The translations under genes were made by a program, and so were the position numbers. From the IMG/VR virus record IMGVR_UViG_3300032214_000615: a stretch of DNA of 64,000 nt; one strand, given 5' to 3'. Position 1 is the stretch's first letter. Each line of letters begins with the position of its first letter. The DNA is from a virus (taxonomy: Duplodnaviria > Heunggongvirae > Uroviricota > Caudoviricetes). Positions 10,005 to 37,151 of this stretch are shown here, piece by piece. Under the pieces are notes generated by a model. The model was not told where the DNA came from and did no database searches. It saw only the letters and a program-made list of their open reading frames with translations.

Positions 10005-10010
10005 CACATT

Positions 10011-11669: not shown

Positions 11670-11674
11670 CGATT

Positions 11675-19700: not shown

Positions 19701-19708
19701 GGTAAATC

Positions 19709-20149: not shown

Positions 20150-20186
20150 TAGATCATGCGTATACAAGAAAGAAAGACAAGAAGGC

Positions 20187-20273
20187 ATTGCCAACTTCTT
20201 AGCAGAAAGATTAGAAGCAATGAACAAGCACGCCTGGATGATGCGCAGCATACTTAAAAAAGAACGAGCATGA
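20187..20273 (+). pseudogene. Diverged duplicate of the last 28 codons of the dps gene, out of frame with dps and ending at the start codon of the next gene
   Basis: Translates to IANFLAERLEAMNKHAWMMRSILKKERA*; the true Dps C-terminus is IADFIAGRLDAMNKHQWMMKAIMKRQRA*. Confidence 0.5.
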
Positions 20274-21292: not shown

Positions 21293-21708
21293 CTAATTGG
21301 ATGGAATACGTCAAGGCAAGTTATGACTTGATTATGTTGGCTCAGCAACGAGCGTCTACTGAGTTAGACTATGATGTTGGCGCCTTTGTTGTTCATACAT
21401 TTGCCAAGTATATGACCACCACTATTAGAACAGAAGAGCCAGTCGCAATCAAATTATTGACCGCTGTAAACAGTACTGGTGAATTGCGCAAACAACGCCT
21501 GATAGAAGTATCTGAAGAGTGCATGTTGATTGACGGACTTGAATTAAACAAGTCTCGTTGGGTAAGCAATGACTACTATCAGAACATTGGTATCATCGCA
21601 CTAGAGCATCGTGCATATAGTGAGCGTCCCCCAGAGTTACTTTACGATAGAATCGCTCAACAATTCAAAGACATTTCCAGAGTATTACATGCTGTAAGAT
21701 TAGTATAA
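21289..21708 (+). CDS. Hypothetical protein
   Basis: 139 aa ORF, translationally coupled (ATGA overlap) to the upstream gene. Confidence 0.45.
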   Translation: MTNWMEYVKASYDLIMLAQQRASTELDYDVGAFVVHTFAKYMTTTIRTEEPVAIKLLTAVNSTGELRKQRLIEVSEECMLIDGLELNKSRWVSNDYYQNIGIIALEHRAYSERPPELLYDRIAQQFKDISRVLHAVRLV

Positions 21709-21719
21709 ATACTAACAGC

Positions 21720-23102
21720 ATGAATATATTTGAAGTTATTGCTGGCAAAACTATTACTCTAAATCGCCTATACGGAGGAAATTTTCCTGATCGTTACGAA
21801 GATTTTTGGGATCATGTTCGTTCGCATGAGCTTGATAAAGAATTGCCAGTTAGAGTTCTACCAGCGTTTAATTTAAAATTACTATTGACTAGTCAATATC
21901 GTAAAGAAGATATTGATGAAGTGTCAGAACTATTAAATGATGGACAGCGAGATATTATCAATCGCTATCAGAAGGACCCACAACTCAGCAGTAAGATAAT
22001 AGTACTGTCTGGCAATAGAATTGTGGATGGCAATCATCGTGCTCTAGCCGCCGCGCTTAACAATGTAAGTATTAATTATGTTGATCTAGCAGACTTGGAT
22101 GAACAAGATGTGACTGAAGATTCTCTAAATGAAGTCAGCAAAGACTGGCGCGAAAGAAGTTCAGCGGAAGATAAGATAGGAAAGATAGCGTCCAGCCGCG
22201 AAAGATCGGATCAATTTACGATTGACGACATAAATGAAGTAAAAAGACTGATCAAAATTACAGGGCGCGCCTCAGTTATTTACGGAGGCAAAGAATATAA
22301 TAGGCTAGGAACAGCGGGCGGTATTTTAGATCATATGATTCATAACTATAGATTGAATCAAGCAAAATCTGGAGCAATGCCACAATTTACTGGAGTCGCA
22401 GCCAATGCTCGTGATATGGCCCGACAAATAGCAATGCAGACTAATGGAGATTATAATCAAAAATATGCCAGAGTATGGACTACTGGATACGGACAGAGAT
22501 ATAAAGACCCATCTGACTTTGTTGAATATAAAACTGAAGAAGACTATGATAGTGCCTGGGACTGGGTACAAAGCAAGGGCAAAAAAGTTTACTACTATGA
22601 TAATTTCAAGCATCTAAACACTGCTATAAAAATTGGAAGATATATAGTTGAGCCAGCTTCAGTTACCAGAGGTGTGTTTAGTGGTAATCCAGAAACAACA
22701 CATCAACTTAGTGTAAGAACGGCAGCAGTGATAAATCAAGCAGTTAGAAGACAAGCGGATATATCAGATCAACAAGCAATGGCACTCAAAGATATTGCTG
22801 CTACTAAAAACGCAAACGCTTTAGAAGGACTTAAACTTTTAATGAGTGTTCTTAAAGGTGAAGAAGACATTAAGAGTGTTATTGATAACTCTAAAAAGTT
22901 AGATCCCAAAGACAAGGCAAAGTTGGATGCCATAATTGCCGGCGCCAAAAATTTTAAAGAACCCGATCAAGATATAGCGGAAGCACGAAAGAAAAAGCGT
23001 AAACGCAAAGTGAATCGTACACCAAGAAGCATAACCACTGGATGGTGGGGTGGCTTTTACGGTGATAATAGTTCAGACGGCGAAGGTGGGGGTGGAGAGT
23101 GA
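21720..23102 (+). CDS. ParB-like nuclease-domain protein (polyvalent-type)
   Basis: IVLSGNRIVDGNHRALAAAL fits the DGxHRxxA core of the ParB/sulfiredoxin fold. Followed by QDVTEDSLNE motif and a basic KKKRKRKVNR C-terminal region. Confidence 0.5.
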   Translation: MNIFEVIAGKTITLNRLYGGNFPDRYEDFWDHVRSHELDKELPVRVLPAFNLKLLLTSQYRKEDIDEVSELLNDGQRDIINRYQKDPQLSSKIIVLSGNRIVDGNHRALAAALNNVSINYVDLADLDEQDVTEDSLNEVSKDWRERSSAEDKIGKIASSRERSDQFTIDDINEVKRLIKITGRASVIYGGKEYNRLGTAGGILDHMIHNYRLNQAKSGAMPQFTGVAANARDMARQIAMQTNGDYNQKYARVWTTGYGQRYKDPSDFVEYKTEEDYDSAWDWVQSKGKKVYYYDNFKHLNTAIKIGRYIVEPASVTRGVFSGNPETTHQLSVRTAAVINQAVRRQADISDQQAMALKDIAATKNANALEGLKLLMSVLKGEEDIKSVIDNSKKLDPKDKAKLDAIIAGAKNFKEPDQDIAEARKKKRKRKVNRTPRSITTGWWGGFYGDNSSDGEGGGGE

Positions 23103-24430
23103 GAGCAAGTGAATTCACTAAGCAAGATGTGGCGGAAGGCTCGTATAGAGAAGGCGGTAGTATTACACACGATGGAGTAGAATATGATTTTGATAGGGTA
23201 ATGAGCATAGCAGAAAAATTGCCTACTAAGACTTGTTCTGTTGATAAACTCTCTTGGATACTCAAATACGATACTCCGAACAAAGAGCGTCTTGAACGTG
23301 CTGACATAACAGTTCCGTTAATAGTCACAAAGAGTTCTAATGGCAAATTAGCAGCAATAGATGGTTTACATAGATTGGCAAAAGCAGTTAGAGATAATGT
23401 AAAGACGTTGCCAGTGAAATATGTAAGTCCAAAGATGTTGCCATCAGCAAAAATCAGCAAGCAAGGCGTGACGGAGAGCATTCAACATAATTCACAAGAC
23501 CTAAAAGATGTGGCAGAATGGATGAGTACTACGTCTGACAAACTCAATATCGTAGTAAAGCAAGAACCAATTGAAAAGTTCATCAAACAAATTCGTGAGA
23601 TGTATGGCACTTACGATGAATTTCCAGAAGATGAAGAACGTACTAATCGTATTTTGAAGTTATTGAAGCGTGGTGCTAAACCACTACCTATGTATGTAGA
23701 AGCCAATGATCCAGACTTATTTGTTATGGAAGGTAGACATAGAATGGTGGCATTCTGGTTAGCAGGTATGAAAACTATTCCAGTTGCGTATGTTAGTGTA
23801 AAAGATAAGCAAGATGTGACGGAAGATAATGTGGTCAATGAAATTGATTATGCTTCAACACTAGCAAATCTTTCTATGTCTGATCAACAACTTATAAAAT
23901 CTTCATCTGTCGTGGGTACAATTGGATCTAGAGAAGTGTTTTTATTTACACAGGGAAATTCTAGAATTTATTTCTTTAAAGATAATGACGCTATAGACGC
24001 ATTAGTCTATCTATTCAAAAATCGTTTGCTAGGCATTAAGAATTATTCACGTAACAAAGGCTTGGTTTATAATTTATTACAGTACATTGTAAATATGAAT
24101 CGTGAGTCAATTAAACTAACGGAGATAGATAAACTAACTCCTGATGGAATACAGTGGATATTGCGACAAATTAAAACTTCAAGTGATTTTGTGATTACGG
24201 ATCAACGAGGAAATAAAATAGATTCGTCTAATCTATATGATGAATGGGAATTAGCAAGAACTTCTGGAAAACATGGATCAACTGAAATAGTAATTGCCCC
24301 ATCTGACAATAGAAAAAACATCAGAGAAAATGAATCGCGACTGATGCCCATGGATATTTGGGGAGCAACATTAAAAACTACTTCATCTAATGTTGTTGAT
24401 ATTAATACGTTATTAGAGATGACATCATGA
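23099..24430 (+). CDS. Protein with two ParB-like motifs plus repeated module copy B
   Basis: LAAIDGLHRLAKAV and FVMEGRHRMVAFWLAG. Motifs QDVAEGSYRE, QGVTESIQHN, KDVAEW, QDVTEDNVVNE. Module B (IKNYSRNKGLVYNLLQYIVN...TPDGIQWILRQIK...ESRLMP). Confidence 0.5.
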   Translation: MRASEFTKQDVAEGSYREGGSITHDGVEYDFDRVMSIAEKLPTKTCSVDKLSWILKYDTPNKERLERADITVPLIVTKSSNGKLAAIDGLHRLAKAVRDNVKTLPVKYVSPKMLPSAKISKQGVTESIQHNSQDLKDVAEWMSTTSDKLNIVVKQEPIEKFIKQIREMYGTYDEFPEDEERTNRILKLLKRGAKPLPMYVEANDPDLFVMEGRHRMVAFWLAGMKTIPVAYVSVKDKQDVTEDNVVNEIDYASTLANLSMSDQQLIKSSSVVGTIGSREVFLFTQGNSRIYFFKDNDAIDALVYLFKNRLLGIKNYSRNKGLVYNLLQYIVNMNRESIKLTEIDKLTPDGIQWILRQIKTSSDFVITDQRGNKIDSSNLYDEWELARTSGKHGSTEIVIAPSDNRKNIRENESRLMPMDIWGATLKTTSSNVVDINTLLEMTS

Positions 24431-26904
24431 GATTAAAAGAATTTATCAATAAACATCATGTAACGGAAGACTCATTGAATGAGTTTTCTATCAATCGCGG
24501 AGATGGAGACGATGACGATGATAATAATCGAGGCCCGGGATTAACTCGTCAAGAATTTAAGAATGCTCTAAAACTTGCTCTAGGGTATGATATGAATGGA
24601 GTAAATGTGTCTACTTTTGAAGGCGGCATGCTCAGAGTTGAGGTAAATGGTGAACGACGAATAGTTCCATGTAATAAATTAGGCGTCAAGGATGCTGCTA
24701 ATTTTATAAAAAGAATAAAAAACCAAGGTGTGACAGAAGGCTCATTGAATGAATTAGCACCAAGTTCAGGTGGTCGCGATGATATACTAAAAACTTTGGC
24801 CGCACAATGGCTTCATGGTGATATAGCCAGTGGTGATTTGAGTAGTGATACTCAATCACAAGAACAAGTCGAGCGCAGATTAGAAAAAGGTATTGTCTGT
24901 CCAGATGGTGCGAAGCGTAAACTTTATATTGACTACAGTGATGATTATGAGGGTGTTGTAATTTACAGTGACGATGATTGGAGTATTACTTATAAGCAGG
25001 ATGACTTGAGTGAATCTAAACAAGGTGTGTCGGAAAACGGCGTTAAGGCTGATATAGAAGAATACTCTTTAAAAGAAATAGATTATTCTTCTGAATTAGA
25101 TTCTACAAATTTTTCGCACAGCAAAGTTATAAAACTTGGAGTAGTTGATGGTCAAATAGACGGGCATGATGTTATGAAAGCATCGTCTGGTGATCAAACA
25201 GTATATTTTTTACTATCTAATGATAGTAAAGTATCAGCCTTTTTAGGTTTTAAAAATGGATACTTGAAGAACATTAAAAACTTTAGTGGTGCTTCTGGAT
25301 TAATCAGTGCGTTGGTGGGTTATGTGGTTCATATTAAAAAAGAAAAGATAAAAATATCTCCAGATGAGCCTATGACTGAATCTGGCATCAAATGGTTATC
25401 TAAGCTAATTAAACAGCCACGTGGATTAACTATAACAAATCAGCGCGGTGAGTCAGTTGATGCAGAAGCGTTAAAACAAGAATGGTCAAACGCAAAAAAC
25501 ACTGGAGCTGCGGGCACTACTGGTATTACTATTAACGAAAATTTTTCGTTTGGTAATAAAATAAGACTTAACGAAGAGTCAAGAAAACAAGACTCTATAC
25601 TTATGCCACATAATTTTTACATAAGTCGGAAAGAGGTGGCGGAAGACTCATTGAATGAGTTCGCCACTAGCGGCGACGATGACAATAGACCACAGCGTCC
25701 GATGTTATTAGCAGATGTTGCCAAAATAATCAAGGCAAAATTAGGTCCAGGTTGGACTATGGAACATGTTGGTAGAACTGAACAGCCAGGATACAAATTC
25801 ATTCCAACAGATAAGACAAAACACGGAATGGCTAAGATTTGGTGCTTAGTAGATTGGGATAAGGTGGGTGAATATCCAACTTACAATACAATACTGTATT
25901 CATTCCAGAATGAAAATGGTAGACTGATGGCTCATGGTCGACACACAGAACGAGCAAAATCTAAAACCGTTTCCAACGCATTAGTGACAGCGCAAACACT
26001 ACTTGGAAATACTGATGGAGCATTAAAAGATTCGGTGACAGAAGACACAGTTGACGAAATGACACTCAAAACCTATAAGACTATGGGTGACTTTAGTAAG
26101 CCAGGACCATTCAAAGACCCAGATTACAAATTAGTCACACATCCAGTTCACATACAGAAGGTAACAGATTTCTTTCAACGCGTTCCACACGATTTTCGTT
26201 TCTTCATGAGCAATCTTCCCGGTATGAGAAAGTATCAAGAAAGTGGCGAGAAAACTCCGCAAGAAATACAACAAATGTTTGGCGAAAAAATAGCCAGAGA
26301 AATTCTGCAAGATACTGAAGATGCTATTACTGTTATTTATATTGGAAATTACGGTCAGAATAAGGTAATGATGTCTCCGCATACTATGGCACATCGTGTT
26401 GGTCATGCTATTACTGCCGCTGGTAGATACGAACGTAGCAAAGTAATTCCGGAATGGACTGAATTATACAATCATTTTTTCAATCAACTTAAAAAAATAG
26501 TAGTAGACTGCTATCAACGACCAGAATCTAACAGATATGATTACTTTACCACTAGACAACAAAGTGTCGATATGGAAGCAAAATATATGGCACTAATGTA
26601 TCAGATTGGGACCCTAAAGAGTAGTCGTGAGCGTAATCTAAATAACACATACGAATTCTTGTATGAAATGTTAGCGCAATATATTAGAACAGGCAAAGTA
26701 ACTCTAAATCCATTGCCAATCAGCGCTGGTTACGGTCGTCTAGTTGGTTGGAAGACAAAATCATTTCAAAAGTATATACGCATAAATTCCGAATGTAGTG
26801 ATGAGCTTTATCGCACTGAAGTTACACAACGATTAGCAAGAGATATGGGAATATTATTCGGGCAAGTATTAGGTGGTTGTGTTGGTAAAATATTTGTGAT
26901 GTAA
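24427..26904 (+). CDS. Large polyvalent-type protein with repeated module copy C and five motif copies
   Basis: 825 aa. HVTEDSLNEF, QGVTEGSLNEL, QGVSENGV, EVAEDSLNEF, SVTEDTVDEM. Module C (IKNFSGASGLISALVGYVVH...DEPMTESGIKWLSKLIKQP...DSILMP). Acidic GDGDDDDDNNRG tract. Confidence 0.5.
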   Translation: MRLKEFINKHHVTEDSLNEFSINRGDGDDDDDNNRGPGLTRQEFKNALKLALGYDMNGVNVSTFEGGMLRVEVNGERRIVPCNKLGVKDAANFIKRIKNQGVTEGSLNELAPSSGGRDDILKTLAAQWLHGDIASGDLSSDTQSQEQVERRLEKGIVCPDGAKRKLYIDYSDDYEGVVIYSDDDWSITYKQDDLSESKQGVSENGVKADIEEYSLKEIDYSSELDSTNFSHSKVIKLGVVDGQIDGHDVMKASSGDQTVYFLLSNDSKVSAFLGFKNGYLKNIKNFSGASGLISALVGYVVHIKKEKIKISPDEPMTESGIKWLSKLIKQPRGLTITNQRGESVDAEALKQEWSNAKNTGAAGTTGITINENFSFGNKIRLNEESRKQDSILMPHNFYISRKEVAEDSLNEFATSGDDDNRPQRPMLLADVAKIIKAKLGPGWTMEHVGRTEQPGYKFIPTDKTKHGMAKIWCLVDWDKVGEYPTYNTILYSFQNENGRLMAHGRHTERAKSKTVSNALVTAQTLLGNTDGALKDSVTEDTVDEMTLKTYKTMGDFSKPGPFKDPDYKLVTHPVHIQKVTDFFQRVPHDFRFFMSNLPGMRKYQESGEKTPQEIQQMFGEKIAREILQDTEDAITVIYIGNYGQNKVMMSPHTMAHRVGHAITAAGRYERSKVIPEWTELYNHFFNQLKKIVVDCYQRPESNRYDYFTTRQQSVDMEAKYMALMYQIGTLKSSRERNLNNTYEFLYEMLAQYIRTGKVTLNPLPISAGYGRLVGWKTKSFQKYIRINSECSDELYRTEVTQRLARDMGILFGQVLGGCVGKIFVM

Positions 26905-26936: not shown

Positions 26937-29474
26937 ATGAGTTTAAATTTTGACGATCAATTATCTATAACTGAAGCAGAAATGTCCCCCAGTGCATTTA
27001 GCGGAGCATTACAGCAGGGTGAAGTTGATCGCGTGCTTGTTGGGTTTGAATTTGAATTCTGCATGCCTAAGAGCAAAATTAAAGAACTCACTGCGTCTAC
27101 AACTACTACCACTACTTCAACTGAAGAAGAAATATTTCAACAATTACGACGAACAAATTTGTTACACTATACTCCATACGGCAGTATTAATCTAGCTAAT
27201 TTTAATAAATGTTTTAAAGTAAAGCCTGGATTTAAATATCCTACTCTTGGTATGGGATTGCGTGGCTATATAGATGCCACGATTGATAAGTGTATTAAAA
27301 TATTCTATGAAATTCCGGAAGAAGAGCGAGCTAGAATTTCTAAAGTGGCTCTTAAGAAATTACGAGAACAGGGCGCAGCACAAATGCTTAATGTAGGTAC
27401 TTTTTGTGTTATTAGCGCGGCAAAATTATTAAGATATAAAACAGATCAGATAGCTTATCTAAGATATTTTTGCCAGGAAGCATCGCGAGAGCGTACTATC
27501 CCCATGCAATGGAGTAACTCTAAGTATAAAAAAATTATAGATTTAATTTATGGTCGTTTAATAACTTATAAATTTTTATTATATTTTATTACTGGAGCAT
27601 CTCAAGAAAGAATCGTACAAAATCCACAAGATTATTTAGATATAGTATCAATTGACGCTGCCAACAACATCTTATCTGTCAGTGAGCGTGCTACTGGTAG
27701 TTCATATATGGATTATGCTAAAGCTGTTTCAAAACTATGTCAGAGTTATGTTAAAAAGACGCCAATAATATTCATTCGTCGTCATGAAAGACCAAAAAAT
27801 CTAGTAGATTGGTATATTGAGCCTGATGGTAGTGTTATACCCACTGATTCTGAACAGGGAGGAGAATTAGTTAGTCCGCCGTTTAGGCCTGCTGTTGCCA
27901 TGGATATGTTAAAACAGTTTTACGCCATGTCTGTAGAGGGACAATTTAATGTAAGCAAAGCTAGAAAAACTGGACTACATATAAATGTCAGCATACCTAA
28001 GAAAATTGATTTGTTAAAGTTGGCAATATTTACAGCCGATGATCGTATTTTGACTCAATTTGATAGACAGAATTATGACTACGCTGTCAATGTAATGAAC
28101 AGTTTAAAACAATCTTTATCTAGTAATACTAAATTAAAAAACGACGCTAGAGTTGATAGTGATAAGGTATTGTCACGGATTGAATCTATTGCCAAAGGAA
28201 TAATGAAAGATCACACTGCCAGTATCAGTTCTGAAAACAAAAACTATATTAGTTTTCGCAGCGTTGGATTTGATTATTTAAGCCCCGGGCAGTTTAAACA
28301 TGTTGTAGATGCTGTTGGACGATTTGTTCGCGCTATAATTATTGCCAGCGACCCAGACGCATATCGTTCTGAGTATCTAAAGAAATTACAAGACTTGCTT
28401 GAAACTAATATACCAAAAAAAGAAAATCTGACAACTTCAGAATTAATAAATCTGTATCGTAATATAAAACAAAATGGTATACCAGCAATCAAAACAATAG
28501 CATATCTTACTAAAAATAATAAAAAAGCAGCAAATAAAATAGATTATTTTGGAAGCATGCTTCTTCATCTTTCTGGTTTAACCCAGCGATCTTATAAACC
28601 TAAAGAAATAATTAATACTCCAGTAAGAAATGCCACTGACGAAGAAAAGAACTTATTAACGACTACTATTACCGCCAGCAATAAACCGGCAAACATCAAT
28701 GCCACTGTTGATAAAATTAATGATCCAGTCGCAACTATAAAAACTGTAACGCTAACTGCTTCAAAAAACCCAGAAATATTAATCAAAATTATTAATATGG
28801 CTGATTCAGTAGTTAAATTACAACAAACAATGACAATGACTTACTACACTGGTGTAGAGTATCTAGGATATGGTGGTTGGGGATTAGTACAACCAACTAG
28901 AATACCCATAACAGATGATCCAGCAACTACCGATATATTAAAATACTTGAAGAGACAAATAGAAAAATCAAAAGAAACGACAAAAAAACTTAATTTACCA
29001 GAAATGATTCAAGAAGAATTAGATGTAAATAAGATTTATTACTTTGCGTATGGTATGTTGACCGACGAGAGCAAAATGAAACACTTGAACGCCAAGAAAA
29101 TAGGCAGAGCAGTACTATCTGATTTTAAATTGGAATTATTACAGCATGCTAATATCGTCAAAGAATCTGGATCAAAAGTTGTGGGTGTACTTTGGGAAAT
29201 AGATAAAGACGCACAAGATGTCTTGGATCAGATTGAGGGTTATCCAGTATATTACAATAGAATAGTAGCATCAGTAAAAACAGATACTGATGTGGTAGAT
29301 GCCGAAGTTTATATTATGACCGATCAATCTCGCAAACATTCATATGAACACGGATATCCTACTCAGAGATACGTAGATGACATAGTTCGTGGATATCGTG
29401 CCGCACGAATTAATATAAATCAGCTAATCACTGCTCTAAATGAATTAAACAGTAGACTTGACGATGAAAAGTAA
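26937..29474 (+). CDS. Amidoligase (glutamine-synthetase-like fold, Amidoligase_2-type) fused to a C-terminal gamma-glutamyl cyclotransferase (GGCT/AIG2-like) domain
   Basis: N-terminal VGFEFEFCMP (ExE ligand motif), GGELVSPP, TGLHINVS. C-terminal YYFAYGMLTDES...KVVGVLWEIDKDAQDVLDQIEGYPVYYNR (GGCT pattern YGSL...G.LY.I....LD..EGY...Y.R). Confidence 0.55.
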   Translation: MSLNFDDQLSITEAEMSPSAFSGALQQGEVDRVLVGFEFEFCMPKSKIKELTASTTTTTTSTEEEIFQQLRRTNLLHYTPYGSINLANFNKCFKVKPGFKYPTLGMGLRGYIDATIDKCIKIFYEIPEEERARISKVALKKLREQGAAQMLNVGTFCVISAAKLLRYKTDQIAYLRYFCQEASRERTIPMQWSNSKYKKIIDLIYGRLITYKFLLYFITGASQERIVQNPQDYLDIVSIDAANNILSVSERATGSSYMDYAKAVSKLCQSYVKKTPIIFIRRHERPKNLVDWYIEPDGSVIPTDSEQGGELVSPPFRPAVAMDMLKQFYAMSVEGQFNVSKARKTGLHINVSIPKKIDLLKLAIFTADDRILTQFDRQNYDYAVNVMNSLKQSLSSNTKLKNDARVDSDKVLSRIESIAKGIMKDHTASISSENKNYISFRSVGFDYLSPGQFKHVVDAVGRFVRAIIIASDPDAYRSEYLKKLQDLLETNIPKKENLTTSELINLYRNIKQNGIPAIKTIAYLTKNNKKAANKIDYFGSMLLHLSGLTQRSYKPKEIINTPVRNATDEEKNLLTTTITASNKPANINATVDKINDPVATIKTVTLTASKNPEILIKIINMADSVVKLQQTMTMTYYTGVEYLGYGGWGLVQPTRIPITDDPATTDILKYLKRQIEKSKETTKKLNLPEMIQEELDVNKIYYFAYGMLTDESKMKHLNAKKIGRAVLSDFKLELLQHANIVKESGSKVVGVLWEIDKDAQDVLDQIEGYPVYYNRIVASVKTDTDVVDAEVYIMTDQSRKHSYEHGYPTQRYVDDIVRGYRAARININQLITALNELNSRLDDEK

Positions 29475-30228
29475 TGAATTTTTATCGGAATCTCAAGCAG
29501 GATTACCCGATGACTTACAAAAAATACTGTCCGAAAAGGGATACCGTTATATAAATGCGGGCGCTGAACATACTGTATGGTTGGGTCCAGATGGATTCGT
29601 ATATAAGATAATGCCTCCCAGATTTATCAAAGAAGAAACCGCAAAAAAATTACAAATGGGCAGTAAACGCCCAGAAGATGTGTATGTGACTAAAGCTCAA
29701 CAATGCTTTATTGATTGGGTTGAATACTGTCAAAATCATCCCAATAATAAATTTCTACCATTCTTTGATGATTGGAAACCATATATACATGAGTTCGTAA
29801 GAGACAATAAAAAGTATTACTACTTCTATATTCAATGTAGAACCGAACGATTATTCCCATTACACGATTGGAAAAAACTTACCTGGGCAGATACTGATTT
29901 AATTACTGGAGAAATTGATTGGGGTCAAGCACTTAGTGAGATAGCATATGATATTGCCTATGGTATGTCAAAACAAGGTTTTATTAAAAGATTGAAGAAT
30001 GGTGCTGCTAGACAGGGAACATATCAAGTCGTTAGTCATATGGGAGATCAGCGAACACTAACACTGTTTTATGATACCATTACTGATTTGATTCGTATTG
30101 CCACTAATAAAGGATACAGACTTGATTTACACAGTGATAACTTTATGTTGGGCAGTGATGGACATATAGTTATTAATGACCCATTCTTTATTAGATACGC
30201 ACCCGAAAACGATATGTATAGCAGTTAA
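29458..30228 (+). CDS. Protein-kinase-like fold protein (atypical kinase)
   Basis: INAGAEHTVWLGPDGFVYKIMPP (Gly-rich strand and VxK lysine), catalytic-loop-like DLHSDNFMLGSDGHIVINDPF (HxDxxxxN ... xxD). Confidence 0.45.
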   Translation: MTMKSNEFLSESQAGLPDDLQKILSEKGYRYINAGAEHTVWLGPDGFVYKIMPPRFIKEETAKKLQMGSKRPEDVYVTKAQQCFIDWVEYCQNHPNNKFLPFFDDWKPYIHEFVRDNKKYYYFYIQCRTERLFPLHDWKKLTWADTDLITGEIDWGQALSEIAYDIAYGMSKQGFIKRLKNGAARQGTYQVVSHMGDQRTLTLFYDTITDLIRIATNKGYRLDLHSDNFMLGSDGHIVINDPFFIRYAPENDMYSS

Positions 30229-30256
30229 GAGTAAATACTAATGAAATAATTTAATC

Positions 30257-31696
30257 ATGCGCGCACGAGAAATACTAACAGAAACCGTTGAAGAGCAACA
30301 AAACATTGTAACAATGGCTAAAAACATAATTAAATGGCACTCAGAAAAAATAGGCGATATGTCGTCTCTATTAAAAAATAGAAATAATATATCCTCTCAA
30401 TTATACAATGAATCAGAAGATGATGATATTTCAGACGACGAATTACTTTCAATAATGAATCGTGCTAGGAACAAAGCCAAGAAATCAGGAATTGATGATA
30501 TTGATATCTCAGACGACGAATTACTCGCCATTATGAACAAAAATAAAATGGCGAAGTTTGATTATGATAATTGGTTAAACAGGCCTATACGTCTAATTGA
30601 TGTAGTCGGTTCTGGCCCGTGGACGCCAACTGTTAACGATTGGTTAAGCACAAATCCTACAATAATATTTGCCACAGAAGACAATTCTTCTTTGAAAATT
30701 AGAAAGGACGCATTACAAAAATTTTGGGGATGGTGGGATTCTACGCTTAATCATATTGTTATTAACTGCGCGATGCGGCGACCGGTTTCTTCTTATCTAT
30801 CGACGATTGTTCATGAGCTTCAACACGGGTTGGATTATTATAAGTCTAATTCTCTTGCAGGACAACGCTCTCTTGCAGGACGAGGTGGATCAGCAACACG
30901 AGCCAAACAAGAAAAAGAGGACATCTCAACTATAATAGCGGCATTCAAAAACGCAATAGATAGAATTCCAAGTTCCGGGCTTTACATCAAAGATATTATT
31001 ACTTCAGACTCGTTACAATCAACAATCTTTAAAAATCTTGTAAATGATCCCGAGATTGCTTCTATGAAAATAGAATCGCCAGAGAGTGAATACTCAGATG
31101 AAATGCAGGCGGATCGTTATCTTGATCTTGATATTGATAACAAGTCCGGTACGTATCTAATGTTTTACTGGGTAATTGAAGCGTTGCTAATTGGTTCAAC
31201 TAAAGATTTTCTAACAAAACTAGAAAATACTTTAAATGAATATCGTAATTCATACTATAAACCTAGAGCCGGCTATAGTAACGCAGTAAAACAAGGCTCT
31301 CTTGAATTAGATAAAAACCGCAGCGAATATCTGAGTAAAAATCATGAAATAAATGCCAGAATTTCTCAAGCATTTCACGCTATTATTGAACGTCTAACTC
31401 AACAAAATTTTAAAGGTTATTCAAAAAATAAAAAAACAGCAGAACTACAGCAGAAAGAAATATCCAACGTTGTTAACGCAGTTTATAGTAGTTACCATAT
31501 TAATGGTAGTTTATTTCCGGAACGAATTCGCGAAGAAAGACTTAGACGATTACAAAGAAGACTTCAGCAGTATATATTGGCTCATTTTCCGGAAAATAGT
31601 AACATCATTCCTAAGGCCATCATTCCGCGACGTAATGATGACGTTAGAAAATTACTCTCGCTATTAGGCCCAGAAGGTTTAAAAAATATAAAATAA
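30257..31696 (+). CDS. Putative zincin-like metallopeptidase (single HExxH)
   Basis: STIVHELQHGLDYY. Also acidic repeated ISDDELLSIMNR / ISDDELLAIMNK units near the N-terminus. Supported by one motif only. Confidence 0.3.
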   Translation: MRAREILTETVEEQQNIVTMAKNIIKWHSEKIGDMSSLLKNRNNISSQLYNESEDDDISDDELLSIMNRARNKAKKSGIDDIDISDDELLAIMNKNKMAKFDYDNWLNRPIRLIDVVGSGPWTPTVNDWLSTNPTIIFATEDNSSLKIRKDALQKFWGWWDSTLNHIVINCAMRRPVSSYLSTIVHELQHGLDYYKSNSLAGQRSLAGRGGSATRAKQEKEDISTIIAAFKNAIDRIPSSGLYIKDIITSDSLQSTIFKNLVNDPEIASMKIESPESEYSDEMQADRYLDLDIDNKSGTYLMFYWVIEALLIGSTKDFLTKLENTLNEYRNSYYKPRAGYSNAVKQGSLELDKNRSEYLSKNHEINARISQAFHAIIERLTQQNFKGYSKNKKTAELQQKEISNVVNAVYSSYHINGSLFPERIREERLRRLQRRLQQYILAHFPENSNIIPKAIIPRRNDDVRKLLSLLGPEGLKNIK

Positions 31697-31697
31697 T

Positions 31698-32204
31698 ATG
31701 AAAATATCCGACTTTCGCATACACAGTACTGATAAATTGGACAGCATTCTCGCGAAATGCTGCGAGATGATTTTGACAAAACAACGAGAGGGCTCGGAAT
31801 ATTGGGGAATGGTTGGTGCTTGTGTATTGGACATGGAGAATCGCGCTGTATATGGTGTTAATCACGCTATGGACGATGGTAAACGCAAACACGCAGAACG
31901 AGCGGCAATTGATAATTACCGAGAAAAGTACGGTGACAATTTGGAACACTGTATTATTATCACTACTCTTAGTCCCTGTAGTGAACCATTAGACGAACGC
32001 TGGGGCGATAGTTGTACCGACTTGATAAATGAAATTGGAATACATAAAGTCTATTGCGGATACAAAGATCCAAGTCAAGATCATAGCGAAACTTATCTAC
32101 ACAAACACTTTCATGTCAAGTGTACTCGCAACCAAAAGTTGAACGAACTGTGTAAACGGTTTGCCGACACCTTTTTGAATTCGGATGACACCGATCACAG
32201 TTGA
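31698..32204 (+). CDS. CDA-fold zinc deaminase (cytidine/deoxycytidylate/RibD-like)
   Basis: HAERAAIDNY (H[AC]E) and TLSPCSEPLDERWGDSC (PC-x9-C, long spacing as in RibD/guanine deaminases). Confidence 0.5.
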   Translation: MKISDFRIHSTDKLDSILAKCCEMILTKQREGSEYWGMVGACVLDMENRAVYGVNHAMDDGKRKHAERAAIDNYREKYGDNLEHCIIITTLSPCSEPLDERWGDSCTDLINEIGIHKVYCGYKDPSQDHSETYLHKHFHVKCTRNQKLNELCKRFADTFLNSDDTDHS

Positions 32205-32272: not shown

Positions 32273-32554
32273 ATGTCTGATACTGAAAATTTTGATACCC
32301 CAGTTACATTTAGCGGCGACCAAAAGAAGAAGCTAACTCAAATCATTAACGAAGGCTGCCAGGTGTTACACGAGGTTGAGACACTGAATGAAGGGTTGAA
32401 TGAAACCATTAAAGCAATTGCCGAAGAGATGAATATCAAATCATCGGTCTTGAAGAAAGCAATCAAGATCGCTCATCGTGCTGAGTTTCACAAAACACAA
32501 AAAGAACAAGAACTGCTAGAAACCATTCTGACAACTGTTGGAAAAACACTATGA
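32273..32554 (+). CDS. Small helical protein, possibly GapR/DUF2312-like DNA-binding protein
   Basis: Strong RBS AAGGAG. LKKAIKIAHRAEFHKTQKEQELLETILTTVG resembles the DUF2312 C-terminal pattern; weak. Confidence 0.35.
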   Translation: MSDTENFDTPVTFSGDQKKKLTQIINEGCQVLHEVETLNEGLNETIKAIAEEMNIKSSVLKKAIKIAHRAEFHKTQKEQELLETILTTVGKTL

Positions 32555-32814
32555 GTGATTCAATGTCTGCTCATCGCGACGATCTTCGTGAGTGGAATGA
32601 ATTTTGTGAAAAAACTAAAATTCCACTTAGTTGGAGAGTCTATAGTCCGGACTCAATGTGGGCAAGAAGATTTCATAATGAACGTGGGTTAGTGGGACGA
32701 GAATTAATGTTGGCTGTAAAGCAAGAACTAGAAACTATAGCTCTTAAACAGAAACACGCCACTCAGCAACAAGAGCTTAAGCAGTTAATTGAATTGGAAA
32801 AGAAGTATCAATGA
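32551..32814 (+). CDS. Hypothetical small protein
   Basis: 87 aa, translationally coupled on both sides (ATGA overlaps). Confidence 0.4.
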   Translation: MSDSMSAHRDDLREWNEFCEKTKIPLSWRVYSPDSMWARRFHNERGLVGRELMLAVKQELETIALKQKHATQQQELKQLIELEKKYQ

Positions 32815-34427
32815 GTTATGTGGATGCCATCTTCGACAGAGAGCGTGATACAATTCACGTTGTAGAACGTTCGCCCACCGGCAAACGTGTATATCAGCAG
32901 TATCCTGCCAATTATGTTTTTTATTATGATGACCCCAAGGGCAAGCATCGTAGTGTAAATCTTGATCCAGTCAGCAGATTCAGCAGTCGCAAGCGCGGTG
33001 AGTTCATGAAAGAACTCAAGATTCACAGTGGCAAGCGTACATATGAAAGCGATTTGAATCCAATATTCAGATGCTTGGCTGACAATTATTTGGACGCAGA
33101 GTCTCCGCGACTACATATCTGCGTTTTTGACATTGAAACAGACTTCAATCCTGATCGTGGATTCGCTCCTACTACTGATCCATTCAACCCAGTAACCGCA
33201 ATCTCGTTGTACTTGGATTGGTTGGGACAGTTAATAACACTGTGTATTCCGCCAAAACATATGTCGCAGGAAACTGCTGCTGAAATAGCAGGTCAGTTTG
33301 ATAACACTTTTGTGTTTGAAAATGAAACTGATATGTTCAATGTGTTTTTTGAGTTGATTGATGACGCTGATGTACTAACTGGCTGGAACAGTAGTGGATA
33401 CGATATTCCCTATATGGTCAATCGTGTTACTCGTGTAATGAGTAAGGATGATACACGCAGATTCTGTTTGCTAAATCAACTGCCAAAGCTACGCAAGTAT
33501 GTTATGTTTGATCAAGAACAGGAAACGTATGATCTAAGTGGTCGCATTCATATGGACTACTTGGAGCTATACAAGAAGTATAACTATGAAAGTCGTCATA
33601 GTTATAAGCTTGATTTCATTGGTGAAATGGAAGTAGGAGAGAAGAAAGTTCAGTATGAAGGAACTCTAGATCAACTGTACAACAAAGATTGGCGCAAGTT
33701 CTTAGAGTACAATCGTCAAGACACACTGTTGCTATTCAAGATTCATGACAAGCTAAAGTTCTTGGATCTTGCCAATAGCATCGCGCATCAAAATACCGTA
33801 TTGCTACAAACTGTCATGGGCAGTGTGGCAATGATTGAACAAGCCGTTATTAATGAAGCTCACGCTCGTGGGTTAGTAGTACCAGACAAAAGGAAAGTAA
33901 ATGAAGACACAGAACCAAAAGCAGCCGGTGCCTATGTTGCTACGCCCAAGCGGGGCATGCACGAGTGGATCGCGGCGGTTGACATCAACAGTCTCTACCC
34001 ATCAGCTATCCGCGCTCTTAACATGGCCCCGGAAACCATTATTGGGCAACTCAGACCAACACTCACAGACAAGTACATCAGTGACAAAACATCTGCTGGC
34101 GTAGAATTCGCACACGCGTGGGAAGGTTTGTTCGGCACACTGGAATACACTAGTGTGATGAATCAAGAGCGTGGCACTATGATTACCATTGATTGGGAGC
34201 GTGGTGGCAGTGAAACTGCCAGTGCGGCTGAGATTTGGAAGCTAATCTTTGACAGCAATCAACCCTGGATGATCAGTGCCAACGGAACAATATTCACTTA
34301 TGAGCGAGAGGGTATCATTCCTGGTCTACTCACCAAGTGGTACACTGAGCGTAAAGAAATTCAAAAGCAACTCAAAGAGGCCTCAAGCGTTATTTATGGA
34401 ATTGAATTGCCAAAAGACATGTTATGA
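32811..34427 (+). CDS. Family-B DNA polymerase, fragment 1 of 3 (N-terminal, 3'-5' exonuclease and palm motif A)
   Basis: Exo I ICVFDIETDF, exo II-like LTGWNSSGYDIPYM, motif A AAVDINSLYPSAIRALN. Ends at a stop before motif B. Confidence 0.8.
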   Translation: MSYVDAIFDRERDTIHVVERSPTGKRVYQQYPANYVFYYDDPKGKHRSVNLDPVSRFSSRKRGEFMKELKIHSGKRTYESDLNPIFRCLADNYLDAESPRLHICVFDIETDFNPDRGFAPTTDPFNPVTAISLYLDWLGQLITLCIPPKHMSQETAAEIAGQFDNTFVFENETDMFNVFFELIDDADVLTGWNSSGYDIPYMVNRVTRVMSKDDTRRFCLLNQLPKLRKYVMFDQEQETYDLSGRIHMDYLELYKKYNYESRHSYKLDFIGEMEVGEKKVQYEGTLDQLYNKDWRKFLEYNRQDTLLLFKIHDKLKFLDLANSIAHQNTVLLQTVMGSVAMIEQAVINEAHARGLVVPDKRKVNEDTEPKAAGAYVATPKRGMHEWIAAVDINSLYPSAIRALNMAPETIIGQLRPTLTDKYISDKTSAGVEFAHAWEGLFGTLEYTSVMNQERGTMITIDWERGGSETASAAEIWKLIFDSNQPWMISANGTIFTYEREGIIPGLLTKWYTERKEIQKQLKEASSVIYGIELPKDML

Positions 34428-35291
34428 CTTCAATCTTCTTCTGATAACTTCATCACTCCATTGATTGATTGTATTAGAATCTTCAAAGATTAGATTGAAG
34501 TTTAGCTCAGTGTCGCTAAGTCTTAGTATGTTATAACCTAACTCTCTTGCAGAATTAGTTTTTAACAAGTCTCTGTTTATTTGTTTTGGTTTAGAATGCC
34601 AGAACTCGCCGTCAACTTCTATTAATAGATTCAATGATGGAATATAAAAATCAAAAACCCATGAGCATTTTTCTGCGACTACTATGAATTGTGAAATATA
34701 TTCAATATTATTTTTCAATAAAAACTCAGCGCATTCAAGTTCTATAGAGGTGAATGATGATTTAGTTTTGTTGGTTGAAAGATACGCTGATCTTTTCAGG
34801 GAGCGATTCATTCTCTGTTCGTTCGTTAAATTTAGAAGACGACCTTTATTATGATGTCCATTTTTACCATTTGAGTTTCCCATCATGAGCTTTGATCTTG
34901 CCAAGCGTTGTTCTACTGTCCATTTTGGCGGTCTCCATCCGTTTTCCAAACGAGCCTTCATGTTTTCTTTTGATATTTCTGCCATATTTATTTTGTATTC
35001 TTCGGTATGTGACCCCCATGATTTACCTGTTCTTGATTCCGAAAGTTTCTTTTTGTGCTCTTCGGATTTTGGTCTGTCAGTCAGAGCAATAATAACCTTG
35101 TTTTTACTTTCTTCATTATGCATGGGATTAGCTTCGCGAAATGCTTTGCCGTATGAGTGTCTTAGCTCTGAGCTAATAGTCTCTGCGTCTGGATAAAGTG
35201 ATGAATATTCTGTGGTAGTCAAATCATGTGTGTTGAGATGAGTTCCAGTAATTCTTTTAAAAAGTTTTTTACAAATTTCACAAGTTATCAT
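34422..35291 (-). CDS. Free-standing homing-endonuclease-like protein: N-terminal zinc finger plus C-terminal Vsr-like (PD-(D/E)xK) nuclease domain, inserted between PolB fragments 1 and 2 on the opposite strand
   Basis: CEICKKLFKRITGTHLNTH zinc finger. C-terminal LLIEVDGEFWHSKPKQINRDLLKTNSARELGYNILRLSDTE matches Vsr (GCFWHxH ... GWRVLIVWE). Confidence 0.65.
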   Translation of the reverse strand: MITCEICKKLFKRITGTHLNTHDLTTTEYSSLYPDAETISSELRHSYGKAFREANPMHNEESKNKVIIALTDRPKSEEHKKKLSESRTGKSWGSHTEEYKINMAEISKENMKARLENGWRPPKWTVEQRLARSKLMMGNSNGKNGHHNKGRLLNLTNEQRMNRSLKRSAYLSTNKTKSSFTSIELECAEFLLKNNIEYISQFIVVAEKCSWVFDFYIPSLNLLIEVDGEFWHSKPKQINRDLLKTNSARELGYNILRLSDTELNFNLIFEDSNTINQWSDEVIRRRLKS

Positions 35292-35332: not shown

Positions 35333-36061
35333 ATGAATCTACAAAATTTTAATTTATCCACGGTTAAGAATTTCATAGACGCTAGAGACACAAATGGTCT
35401 AAAAACATATATCTCTGAGTTCGGCCTAGAAATTAGAGAAGGTAAAATTTTGCCAATGACAGAACATTTAGCAGCATGGCAAAATTTACACGATTTTTAT
35501 GACAAGCGTCAGTTAGTTCGTAAGATTTTATTAAATTCGGCATACGGTGCCCTTCTCAATACACACATGCGATTCTACGACATTCGTATTGGTCAGAGTA
35601 CTACGCTCAATGGTCGTCAAATCGTCAAGCACATGAGTGCTCACTTGAATGAGCAAATTGCTGGTGAATACGATCACAACGGAGAAGCAATCGTGTACGG
35701 GGATAGTGTAACCGCGGACACGATCATTCGTACTGATACAGGATCTATTACTATCGAGAAACTATTCAATATGTCATTAGAAAAATGTATCAGTGATGAT
35801 AAAGAATATGGGGTATGGAATGATGCAAAGGTGCTGGGGTTCAACTCAGAAACTATGGAGCCTATAACAGCAAAAATTTCATATGTCATGAGACATAAAA
35901 CAAAGAAAAAATTATATAGAATTACCACCGAAAACGGTAAACAAGTAACGGTCACCGAAGATCACAGTCTAATTGTAGATAGAGATGGATTTTTAGTTGA
36001 ATGTAAACCTACCGATATTAGAGACACTGACTTAATCATCACTTTTGATCCTTCTGCATAA
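35333..36061 (+). CDS. Family-B DNA polymerase fragment 2 (motif B through YGD of motif C) fused to a split-intein N-terminal half
   Basis: Motif B KILLNSAYGALLN. VYGD followed directly by SVTADTIIRTDTG (intein block A) and TEDHSLIV (block B), then a stop. The intein part starts at 35705. Confidence 0.8.
   Translation: MNLQNFNLSTVKNFIDARDTNGLKTYISEFGLEIREGKILPMTEHLAAWQNLHDFYDKRQLVRKILLNSAYGALLNTHMRFYDIRIGQSTTLNGRQIVKHMSAHLNEQIAGEYDHNGEAIVYGDSVTADTIIRTDTGSITIEKLFNMSLEKCISDDKEYGVWNDAKVLGFNSETMEPITAKISYVMRHKTKKKLYRITTENGKQVTVTEDHSLIVDRDGFLVECKPTDIRDTDLIITFDPSA
35705..36061 (+). mobile_element. Split intein, N-terminal half (IntN, 118 aa) inserted after YGD of polymerase motif C
   Basis: Ser1 + blocks A/B, terminated by a stop; sits in a different reading frame from the IntC gene. 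Confidence 0.75.
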
Positions 36062-36090: not shown

Positions 36091-37050
36091 ATGATTAAAT
36101 GTTTAGAATGCGGATTTGAGTCCAGCAGACTTCAATGGACTCATTTCAAATATAAGTGTACCGGACGTTTTCAAAATGGAACGGAATATTTGAAGGCGTA
36201 TCCGCATGCAAAAGTAGTTGATACTGAGTTGGCTTCTAAAACTACACTAACAAAATCAAAATTCATTGAAAAATATGGTGAAAAAGAAGGAATTGAAAAA
36301 TGGGATGCTTATAGAAATAAGCAAGCGTACTCAAATTCCTTTGAGTACAAACAACAAAAATATGGGTGGACTCAACAGCAATTTGATGAATATAACTCAA
36401 ATAGAGCGGTGACGTTAGAAAAGTGTATCCAGCGACACGGAGAGAACGAGGGCGTTCATGTATGGAATGAATATGTTCAAAAGCAAGCATATACAAAAAC
36501 GCAAGCATACTTTATTGAGAAATATGGAGAAAAAATAGGAACAGAAAAATTTTCTCAAGTAAATTTTCTGAAAAGTGCAGCCGTAAATCCCAAAACTATG
36601 GCAGAGGTAAAAAACATATCGGTTGACGACGCTGTTGATATTATTCTTAACAGAAAGAATATGTTCAGATATACGTCAAATCTAGAAAAGGAATTTGTAG
36701 AGAAACTAGAACATCGCATTGGCCCAATGCAACATACGAGCGTCAATAAACCATATGGAAAATGGTCAACGTTGCTGAATTCATACGTGGTATTTGATGT
36801 AAAACATAATGATTGTGTGATAGAATTCAACGGAGATTACTGGCATTGTAATCCAAAGTTATACGAATCGATTGATACTGGCCCTGGAAATAAAACAGCT
36901 CAAGAAATTTGGGATAGGGATGCTAAAAAAATTCAAACAGCGAGAAATCTTGGATTTAGAGTACTGACTGTGTGGGAATCAGATTACATAAAGAACAAAC
37001 AAAAAATTATAGAAGAGGTGATTGAATGGATGCTGAATGGACAAAAGTAA
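36091..37050 (+). CDS. Free-standing homing-endonuclease-like protein (zinc finger + repeated YGxxxG modules + Vsr-like nuclease) located between the two halves of the split intein
   Basis: CLECGFESSRLQWTHFKYKC. Repeats FIEKYGEKEGIEKWDAY / FIEKYGEKIGTEKFSQV. C-terminal VIEFNGDYWHCNPKLY...LGFRVLTVWESDY (Vsr motifs). Confidence 0.7.
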   Translation: MIKCLECGFESSRLQWTHFKYKCTGRFQNGTEYLKAYPHAKVVDTELASKTTLTKSKFIEKYGEKEGIEKWDAYRNKQAYSNSFEYKQQKYGWTQQQFDEYNSNRAVTLEKCIQRHGENEGVHVWNEYVQKQAYTKTQAYFIEKYGEKIGTEKFSQVNFLKSAAVNPKTMAEVKNISVDDAVDIILNRKNMFRYTSNLEKEFVEKLEHRIGPMQHTSVNKPYGKWSTLLNSYVVFDVKHNDCVIEFNGDYWHCNPKLYESIDTGPGNKTAQEIWDRDAKKIQTARNLGFRVLTVWESDYIKNKQKIIEEVIEWMLNGQK

Positions 37051-37151
37051 GTAAAATTGAATGCTTGGGTGAAGTAGATGACTATGTGTATGATATAAGC
37101 ATAGAGAATCAAGACCCATTCTTTTTTGCCAATGATATTTTGGTTCATAAT
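37026..37151 (+). mobile_element. Split intein, C-terminal half (IntC)
   Basis: Ends HN, then the +1 Thr of the extein. Confidence 0.75.

Follow-up and report, generated by a model that had tools for sequence, protein, structure and literature searches.

The region at positions 26937-32204 of the virus record IMGVR_UViG_3300032214_000615 raises the question of whether a ligase, a kinase, a peptidase and a deaminase encoded next to each other carry out the steps of one pathway. The whole stretch of 64,000 nucleotides in which it lies is referred to below as the window. The region consists of four closely spaced, co-directional open reading frames (ORFs) on the plus strand, as a preliminary description of this DNA had reported:

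26937-29474, plus strand: ORF1, 845 amino acids
29464-30228, plus strand: ORF2, 254 amino acids, overlapping the end of ORF1; start placed at ATG 29464 rather than TTG 29458 by an alignment of 13 homologs
30257-31696, plus strand: ORF3, 479 amino acids
31698-32204, plus strand: ORF4, 168 amino acids

Independently assembled contigs (L134 among them) repeat the arrangement, with the eight-gene order of 825, 845, 254, 479, 168, 93 and 87 amino acids followed by polB, the gene for a family-B DNA polymerase. Here and below, L001-L215 denote the related viral loci and contigs that were compared; gene order was surveyed in 110 viral loci and several metagenome contigs. Judged from gene order and homology, ORF1-ORF4 are the downstream end of a hypervariable island of about 16.9-32.2 kb, which encodes polyvalent proteins and also their domains in solo form. 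We give roughly an even chance to the proposal that this island encodes proteins packaged in the phage head, injected with the DNA and acting on the host.

The polymerase gene downstream of the island is 45-47% identical by tblastn to those of Sinorhizobium phage Phosso, Pseudomonas phage PA5oct and Agrobacterium phage Atu_ph07, and this similarity assigns the window to an uncultured member of the T4 superfamily, a jumbo phage. A contig carrying an identical ORF2 protein is 341 kb long, and the phage genome is put at about 340 kb. No DNA-level match to the window was found among 50,697 GenBank phages, and tblastn searches of GenBank phages with ORF2 and ORF4 gave no matches.

To describe gene order, the genes are abbreviated as AMID (amidoligase), KIN (kinase), DEAM (deaminase), FERR (ferritin) and POLB (DNA polymerase B). 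In L001 and L008, the latter with a polB 90% identical to that of the window, the order is ORF1-ORF2-ORF4-o32273-o32551-polB, and there is no ORF3. The deaminase of many relatives adjoins o32273 and polB, and neither an amidoligase nor a kinase lies within 6 kb of it. The orders FERR-KIN-AMID, AMID-DEAM, FERR-DEAM-KIN and AMID-GGACT-KIN occur elsewhere, and copy number ranges up to five tandem amidoligases in L029 and three or four kinases in L006 and L132. Across 77 amidoligase loci and 34 kinase loci both the order and the number of these cassettes vary, and the shuffled cassettes fall between the ferritin gene and the o32273/polB block. They are also joined into single proteins. L083, L084 and L088 each combine an amidoligase with an ORF4-type deaminase in one protein of 2000-2560 amino acids (phmmer E values of 2.6e-34 to 8.6e-37 for the deaminase), L079 unites a nucleotidyltransferase (NTase), an amidoligase, DUF6934 and ParB_N, and a kinase domain of the ORF2 type is embedded in a 944-residue polyvalent protein of L006. 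The amidoligase and deaminase of L083 and the amidoligase of L079 score above the Pfam thresholds; the other L079 domains score below. Because the cassettes shuffle, because they fuse into polyvalent proteins and because ORF1 diverges fast (see below), we regard 26937-32204 as part of a hypervariable island and not as a four-step operon. The proposal that the four genes form a tagging-modification module found only partial support in the comparison that had been suggested for it, conservation of gene order in related phages: order, number and fusions were variable over the 110 loci, and ORF3 is absent from L001 and L008.

An initial view that the deaminase is unrelated to the amidoligase, taken from loci L013-L021 without an amidoligase, was softened, since AMID→DEAM→o32273→POLB proved to be a common order and fused forms occur; the two are linked by position or within polyvalent proteins, not as a fixed operon. 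A reading of the region as a defence system was dropped after the PADLOC models gave nothing significant. Tandem amidoligase arrays lie on single jumbo-phage contigs in L029 (5968-15518), L032 and L039. Giant polyvalent proteins are encoded at L083 3550-11232, in L084 and L088, and at L079 3883-10137, with a domain repertoire of nucleotidyltransferase, Amidoligase_2, deaminase, DUF6934, ParB_N and DUF6886.

ORF1 has three parts:

26937-28436, plus strand: residues 1-500, carboxylate-amine ligase of the glutamine synthetase (GS) fold, Amidoligase_2 family
28437-29006, plus strand: residues 501-690, alpha/beta middle region by the secondary structure of the AlphaFold2 model, conserved in the nearest relatives only
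29025-29474, plus strand: residues 697-845 and the stop codon, AIG2/GGACT gamma-glutamyl(amine) cyclotransferase domain

Fold comparison assigns the N-terminal domain a glutamine-synthetase-like catalytic fold, in which a helical insert of about 240 residues parts the ExE strand from the remaining ligase core. The N-terminal part alone scores 13.2 bits against Pfam Amidoligase_2 (PF12224), below the cutoff of 22, and several of its relatives score above it, so that membership rests on transitive homology. Many of the 375 homologs recovered carry PF12224, among them homologs with E values of 1e-60 to 1e-93, and members of the family reach 38 bits (a paralog in L002), 25.5 bits (L083) and 28.3 bits (L079). 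Residues E38, E40, E295, E310, H348, N350, R377, R441, R462 and E479 are invariant across 70 sequences of the family. They include the signatures singled out in the preliminary description, GFEFEF (E38/E40), ELVSPP (E310) and GLHINVS (H348/N350); the ExE assignment stands, and the supposed HxH is in fact HxN. The Atu_ph07 homolog is named "Amidoligase enzyme" in UniProt. Sequence searches of the PDB with ORF1 and the family profile returned weak GGCT matches and otherwise spurious ones; the matches to a JmjC demethylase and to 3msw, obtained with ORF1, the family profile or an ORF3 profile as query, were rejected as spurious and replaced by the fold comparison. ATP-dependent formation of an amide bond is the predicted reaction of this domain.

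The C-terminal domain matches the GGACT family (Pfam, 6.6e-14) and phrog_2520, and the GGCT fold is present. In its YFAYGML motif, which corresponds to the YGSL-type motif that defines the GGCT family (bioRxiv 10.1101/2025.01.15.633182), Y705, G706 and L708 are conserved in at least 90% of 35 homologs. E767 is invariant in the same 35 and aligns with the Glu of the GGCT 'QEG' motif (catalytic Glu82 of GGACT, Glu98 of GGCT). Enzymes of this fold convert gamma-glutamyl derivatives into 5-oxoproline and a free amine (bioRxiv 10.1101/2025.01.15.633182). The presence of ligase and cyclotransferase on one polypeptide, already proposed from the ORF itself, is a recurrent feature: among 70 ORF1 homologs the GGACT domain is N-terminal in about 31, C-terminal in about 11 and missing from the remainder. 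That they are fused in both domain orders argues strongly for joint action of the two activities, and both catalytic domains look active and evolutionarily coupled. The middle region was recovered by BLAST domain mapping in P0001 only.

ORF1 also evolves far faster than the genes around it. It is 46% and 34% identical to the protein at the orthologous position in L001 and L008, respectively, against 84% and 56% for ORF2 and 85% and 79% for ORF4; the neighbours ORF2, ORF4, o32273 and polB (the last in L008) span 56-91%. Such low identity beside well-kept neighbours indicates either very fast divergence or replacement by a paralog. In this large uncultured jumbo-phage clade the amidoligase/GGCT genes are among the most expanded and fastest-evolving cassettes of the island. 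Phage amidoligase and GGCT genes have been annotated for more than 15 years, and we found no demonstrated function for them in the searchable literature.

ORF2 is a protein-kinase-fold enzyme without the C-lobe, a solo form of the kinases found in polyvalent proteins, and it begins with the leader MKSNEFLSE. The ATP-binding Lys, the catalytic D/N loop and the metal-binding Asp are present, which bears out the atypical kinase fold noticed earlier. Numbered on the 256-residue translation from the TTG start, Q126 is invariant and the protein terminates 15 residues past D241. Loss of the C-terminal subdomain and a conserved Gln in the N-lobe's last strand are described for polyvalent-protein kinases (PMC5512222), and ORF2, compared with that description, fits on both counts. 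It matched no Pfam or NCBIfam family, including hidden Markov models (HMMs) of the Pkinase type; the only match was to phrog_15752 at 9e-5. The profile searches thus supported the preliminary domain assignments for the GGACT/AIG2 and deaminase domains, which scored above threshold, and gave neither a Pkinase-type Pfam match for ORF2 nor an Amidoligase_2 score above cutoff for ORF1.

ORF3 encodes a lineage-specific zincin-like protein with the leader MRAREILTE, an insert of about 170 residues and a duplicated ISDDELLxIMN segment. Only three relatives were found among 1.8 billion representative proteins, one near-identical and two distant. All four members share HE[LI][QR]H-x-x-D and a downstream EINAR (H186-E-L-Q-H190-x-x-D193 and E364 in ORF3). 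The HELQH motif is therefore conserved together with a downstream Glu; the ISDDELLxIMN repeats, at first treated as a functional motif, are absent from P0135 and P0136 and are regarded as a lineage-specific duplication. The zincin metallopeptidases (MPTases) of polyvalent proteins have HEXXH, an Asp at +3 and a Glu in the second helix, with a variable insert between (PMC5512222), a description that the ORF3 pattern fits. ORF3 has no Pfam or PDB match. Its relatives give sub-threshold matches to DUF6782, a 'putative metallopeptidase', and hhalign aligned ORF3 with the HExxH protein that takes its position in L020 at E 3.6e-4 and a probability of 37%. In L020, a more distant relative (4972-5922 and 6405-7007), this protein also has a fused PGDYG domain; its gene directly precedes that of the deaminase, and a HAD-family phosphatase gene lies just downstream of the deaminase.

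ORF4 is a zinc deaminase of the CDA fold, RibD-like subtype, with the leader-like start MKISDF. It matches Pfam dCMP_cyt_deam_1 at 1e-14 (54.7 bits against a threshold of 25), and its nearest match is the RibD deaminase domain (PDB 2hxv, 2e-6; TIGR00326, 1e-7). The zinc ligands and catalytic Glu (H65, E67, C94 and C106) are conserved in 26 homologs. The RibD-like CDA assignment made earlier is upheld, with the Cys spacing corrected from PC-x9-C to PC-x11-C. With 31.3 bits against the TIGR00326 cutoff of 156, a length of 168 residues and no reductase domain, ORF4 fails as a RibD equivalog and is RibD-like in motif only. The deaminases of L001 (3634-4542) and L008 (4049-4960) have a 134-residue C-terminal extension (…IGSGPFDGGCVIFARAL…) that is missing in ORF4 of the window.

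Unrelated proteins of the island share a short N-terminal leader, M[KR]xx[ED][FILMV], mostly followed by [ILV]xE, with the consensus MRAxEFITE. The leader- or linker-bearing genes upstream of ORF1, together with those that serve as boundary or synteny markers and a second amidoligase further downstream, are as follows:

16969-18555, plus strand: polyvalent-type multidomain ORF with QGVAE/QDVAE linkers
18555-19700, plus strand: leader-bearing island ORF (leader MKAHEIVSE) whose N-terminal region recurs beside deaminase genes in relatives
19709-20149, plus strand: ferritin-like gene (Pfam Ferritin, 1.8e-20), part of a recurrent FERR…o32273-POLB synteny
20270-21292, plus strand: Zeta-toxin/AAA_33 P-loop kinase (Pfam, 4.4e-14) with leader MKIVELLENINVTEG, directly following the ferritin-like gene
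21720-23102, plus strand: polyvalent-type ORF with QDVTEDSLNEV linkers, its N-domain recurring fused to a kinase domain in L006
23099-24430, plus strand: polyvalent ORF with two ParB-like regions (PHROG ParB-like matches), leader MRASEF and QDVAEG/QGVTES/QDVTED linkers
24427-26904, plus strand: polyvalent ORF of 825 amino acids with leader MRLKEF and five VTE/VAE/VSE…LNEF linkers
32273-32554, plus strand: o32273, a small conserved regulator-like gene (phrog_12534/639), with polB the downstream synteny anchor
32811-34427, plus strand: N-terminal part of the family-B DNA polymerase matched by tblastn to Phosso, PA5oct and Atu_ph07, the downstream boundary of the island
43930-46206, plus strand: second amidoligase paralog, 758 amino acids, without GGACT, leader MRYKDFYTE (BLASTP 3e-21 to the ORF1 core)

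The leader pattern opens the window genes at 18555, 20270, 23099, 24427, 29464, 30257, 31698 and 43930. It was counted in 7 of 83 window ORFs, where 0.45 were expected by shuffling, and in 36 of 196 ORFs of related loci, including eight consecutive genes in L006 (526-9067). It stands on each of the 13 ORF2 homologs, on every relative of ORF3 and on most homologs of the amidoligase; the conservation is at the peptide level and not at the nucleotide level, and positions 7-9 read LSE, LTE or ITE in most cases. A second motif, Q[GD]V[TA]E[DG](SLNEF), forms 14 junctions in the four polyvalent ORFs of 16969-26904; under the stricter pattern Q[GD][VI][TSA]E, 10 copies were counted and 0.17 expected. 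This junction motif recurs in distant relatives, L020 and L083 among them, and the same motif is found at the N-termini of solo genes.

Phage T4 offers a parallel for such leaders. Its internal proteins are unrelated, fast-evolving and directed against the host, and their only common part is a 10-residue capsid targeting sequence; the gp21 prohead protease cleaves after Glu, including in Alt at ITE-6 (PMC3012670, PMC9026906, PMC5694885). Both the leaders and the QGV[TA]E junctions look like prohead-protease sites of the cleave-after-Glu type, and by this analogy the junction Q[GD]V[TA]E is likely such a cleavage site. A uniform leader combined with a regular junction suggests processing by the prohead protease, instead of or besides the built-in MPTases of polyvalent proteins. 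The major capsid proteins of the supergroup (L137-L215, which are not those of this clade itself) keep ALLEG/TLEN near the N-terminus; this is compatible with the protease-site idea but not decisive. The preliminary description had proposed the Glu-containing linkers as substrates of the ligase. We found nothing in support of this, and the QGV[TA]E motif resembles prohead-protease sites (PMC5694885).

One member of the amidoligase family has been detected in virions. Protein gp196 of Atu_ph07 (AUZ94978.1, 500 amino acids) belongs to the family by HMM search (E 2.7e-42), and mass spectrometry of Atu_ph07 virions identified it by 14 unique peptides with 30% coverage (PMC6102473 Table S5); its computed mass of 57.93 kDa equals the entry in that table. 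The head-module neighbours of gp196 include the virion proteins gp199, gp205, gp206 and gp213, which start with [LI]xE-containing leaders (L135, Atu_ph07 161800-182000).

We propose the following scheme. Leader-bearing proteins would be directed to the prohead, where its protease would cleave them after Glu; injected along with the DNA, they would act on host molecules early in infection. The GS-fold domain of ORF1 would use ATP to activate a carboxylate and would then couple this to an amine; the analogy of every characterised member of the fold makes the gamma-carboxylate of glutamate the most likely one. The GGACT domain would release 5-oxoproline from gamma-glutamyl-amines, so that a gamma-glutamyl amide made by the one domain could later be removed or resolved by the other, having served either as a mark that can be taken off again or as a temporary group for protection or activation. 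This is the simplest chemistry for the pair because GS-fold ligases (GS, GCL, GmaS, PafA) use the gamma-carboxylate of Glu and GGCT enzymes yield 5-oxoproline. PuuA is likewise a GS-fold gamma-glutamyl ligase that acts on the gamma-carboxylate of glutamate. The domains would run a futile cycle unless each acts on a different substrate. For a transient gamma-glutamyl group, BtrG of butirosin biosynthesis provides a precedent (bioRxiv 10.1101/2025.01.15.633182). The truncated kinase ORF2, the zincin-like peptidase ORF3 and the pyrimidine-type deaminase ORF4 would be independent cassettes rather than steps of one pathway. If injected proteins write and erase gamma-glutamyl amides on host molecules, their chemistry, directed at early host takeover or against defence, would form a new class. 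If the scheme holds, a simple rule based on the leader and the QGV[TA]E junction would allow the injected proteome of these phages to be predicted from sequence, and might possibly serve to load foreign proteins into their capsids.

Several points weigh against injection of these proteins. Virion detection concerns the Atu_ph07 homolog and not the proteins of this phage, and gp196 lacks GGACT and is about 30% identical to ORF1. The Atu_ph07 preparation was purified with polyethylene glycol (PEG) only, and topoisomerase and NUDIX proteins are also on the list (PMC6102473), so contamination is possible. The leader of ORF1 itself is degenerate (MSLNFD…ITE). The motif [LIV]xE[VA]xM starts every amidoligase domain and is ordered in the model (predicted local distance difference test, pLDDT, of about 87), and may have a structural role instead of being cleaved. 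The shared N-terminal peptide could also have a different role, for instance in translation, degradation or localisation. Proteins to be packaged have to be made late, yet the island adjoins replication genes; promoter and terminator scans gave no difference from shuffled sequence and hence say nothing on the timing of expression. Finally, the substrate proposed for the ORF1 ligase is taken wholly from fold relatives, and adjacency of amidoligase and kinase in the distant relative L002 could still reflect a functional pair.

Four other explanations were weighed. ORF1 might be an auxiliary metabolic enzyme, made in the cytoplasm from the phage genome rather than packaged, that alters the host's pools of gamma-glutamyl compounds, glutathione or polyamines, through gamma-glutamylation of polyamines as by PuuA or glutathione breakdown as by ChaC. 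The PHROG class of the GGCT family is 'moron/auxiliary metabolic gene', and the fold relatives of the ORF1 domains include GS, gamma-glutamylmethylamide synthetase and glutathione-specific cyclotransferases. But an identity of 34-46% beside neighbours at 56-91%, together with tandem expansion, is typical of conflict genes and not of housekeeping ones, and the leader motif, the membership in polyvalent proteins and the virion detection of a homolog also speak against this explanation, which we consider unlikely.

A role in remodelling the envelope, in which unusual gamma-glutamyl linkages in peptidoglycan peptides are made or trimmed to block superinfection, has been put forward for podophages related to phiEco32, LUZ24 and N4. 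In LUZ24-like and Pseudoalteromonas phages, Amidoligase_2 and AIG2/GGCT genes stand upstream of replication genes (PMC3890496, PMC5498523), and the BFVD matches include the 'Amidoligase' of Pseudomonas phage tf and of Cellulophaga phage phi14:2. The podophage proposal is, however, itself only a proposal, and its further partners GATase-II, ATP-grasp and COOH-NH2_lig (PF14395) were absent from about 46 window ORFs scanned with Pfam and from the called genes of L001, L002, L006 and L007. The jumbo-phage family is moreover larger (640-850 against about 385 amino acids), occurs in tandem and in polyvalent proteins, and is virion-associated in Atu_ph07. Envelope remodelling is in our judgement improbable for this island.

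The idea of a single tagging pathway, with the ligase placing Glu or amines on the polyvalent linkers and the kinase, peptidase and deaminase processing the product, draws on the close spacing of the four co-directional genes, on adjacency of amidoligase and kinase in L001, L008, L002/3, L062, L066, L069, L080 and L095-98, and on the fusion of amidoligase and deaminase in some giant proteins. It is at odds with the nearly orphan status of ORF3 and its absence from the nearest relatives, with the many loci that have a deaminase or kinase but no amidoligase, or the reverse, in varying order and copy number, and with the linkers, which fit the logic of protease sites and share their motif with the N-termini of solo genes. 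Polyvalent proteins, besides, combine unrelated activities by definition (PMC5512222). We regard a single pathway as quite improbable.

Modification of nucleotides or DNA tied to replication, with the kinase activating a modified base, the ligase adding an amino acid or amine and the deaminase supplying a precursor pyrimidine, appears equally so. Kinases and amino-acid addition do take part in the thymidine hypermodification pathways, the genes lie directly upstream of polB, ORF4 resembles the RibD pyrimidine deaminase, and the deaminase keeps its place in many relatives, in L020 beside the HAD phosphatase. ORF2, however, has the fold of a protein kinase and not of a P-loop nucleotide kinase; the scanned ORFs yielded neither a hydroxymethylase or thymidylate-synthase homolog nor any further hypermodification gene; and the cassettes shuffle independently, occur in polyvalent proteins and have a virion-associated homolog.

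Within the injection scheme, cleavage after Glu at QGV[TA]E and the leaders would produce fragments with a C-terminal glutamate, the type of substrate used by PafA, and the ligase might then be an injected, Pup-ligase-like conjugator that joins free Glu or phage fragments covalently to lysines on proteins of the host or the phage, with GGACT erasing or editing the gamma-glutamyl-lysine marks; this would amount to a virus-encoded, injected, pupylation-like tagging system, and we hold it to be very unlikely indeed.

Some further features of the window and its island may be recorded. In relatives the island's upstream side is marked by the ferritin-like gene; in the window this gene sits inside the leader- and linker-bearing cluster, with the ORFs at 16969 and 18555 upstream of it. 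The C-terminal domain of the 24427-26904 protein is a solo gene of 292 amino acids in L006 (47% identity). The second amidoligase (43930-46206) has no Pfam match and was recognised solely through ORF1 and a 760-residue protein of L002, to which it is 29% identical over 770 residues and which itself matches Amidoligase_2 (38 bits). The polB gene of the window is in pieces, with the N-terminal part at 32811-34427, a polB piece and an intein N-splicing region at 35333-36061, and an intein C-splicing region and the rest at 37026-38015; a DUF559/MTES_1575 endonuclease-like gene (34422-35291, minus strand) and an endonuclease-like ORF (36091-37050) lie between them. The polB genes of relatives are unsplit and encode 834-888 amino acids. 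At 8682-13096, two neighbouring ORFs have a near-identical start (MPLVVGQSY…), the second carrying LCCL and Hint, and a subtilase (Peptidase_S8) gene follows them.

Among known systems, the cassettes of LUZ24- and phiEco32-like podophages use the same families of GS-fold amidoligase and GGCT-fold cyclotransferase and keep them together upstream of DNA replication genes (amidoligase cassettes of Iyer et al. 2009, as presented in the citing papers PMC5498523, PMC11318856 and PMC3890496). The podophage enzymes are separate genes, whereas the family in the window joins them in a single polypeptide, in both orders among relatives. The ligase of the window type is also twice as long, has the helical insert, is expanded in tandem, belongs to polyvalent proteins and bears a leader resembling a capsid targeting sequence. 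Compared with the GS-fold gamma-glutamyl ligases GS, GmaS and GCL and with the Pup ligase and depupylase PafA/Dop, the ORF1 ligase has a large family-specific insert and no sequence-level match to any solved structure.

In butirosin biosynthesis, BtrJ is an ATP-grasp enzyme and not of the GS fold. BtrJ and the GGCT-like BtrG are separate enzymes and act on carrier-protein-bound intermediates (bioRxiv 10.1101/2025.01.15.633182). ORF4 shares with the RibD deaminase domain the HAE and PC…C zinc site, with an extended spacing of the Cys residues and the motif C(T)DLI…GI…V…G…DP; unlike RibD, it has no reductase domain, and genes of its type adjoin polB or sit in polyvalent proteins.

The polyvalent proteins defined by Iyer, Burroughs, Anand, de Souza and Aravind in 2017 likewise join unrelated domains (ParB-like, NTase, zincin MPTase and C-lobe-less kinase), with solo cassettes nearby, and were proposed to travel with the DNA (PMC5512222). 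The text of that paper makes no mention of an amidoligase or GGACT domain, and no RibD-like deaminase was found among the domains it describes; the word 'deaminase' occurs there three times, in one case as part of a reference-list entry. Unlike that set, the phage group of the window is marked by a QGV[TA]E junction that recurs regularly and by an N-terminal leader of uniform type. The T4 internal proteins IPI-III and Alt follow the scheme proposed here for the window, being unrelated, fast-evolving proteins with a leader of about 10 residues ending in [IL]xE that are cut after Glu and injected against the host. T4 internal proteins are small and basic, whereas the putative cargoes of the window, whose packaging and cleavage would follow the T4 model, are large enzymes and multidomain proteins with a leader one residue shorter (MRAxEFITE). 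Most notable here are the leader and junction rule and the placing of amidoligase-cyclotransferases among probably injected effectors.

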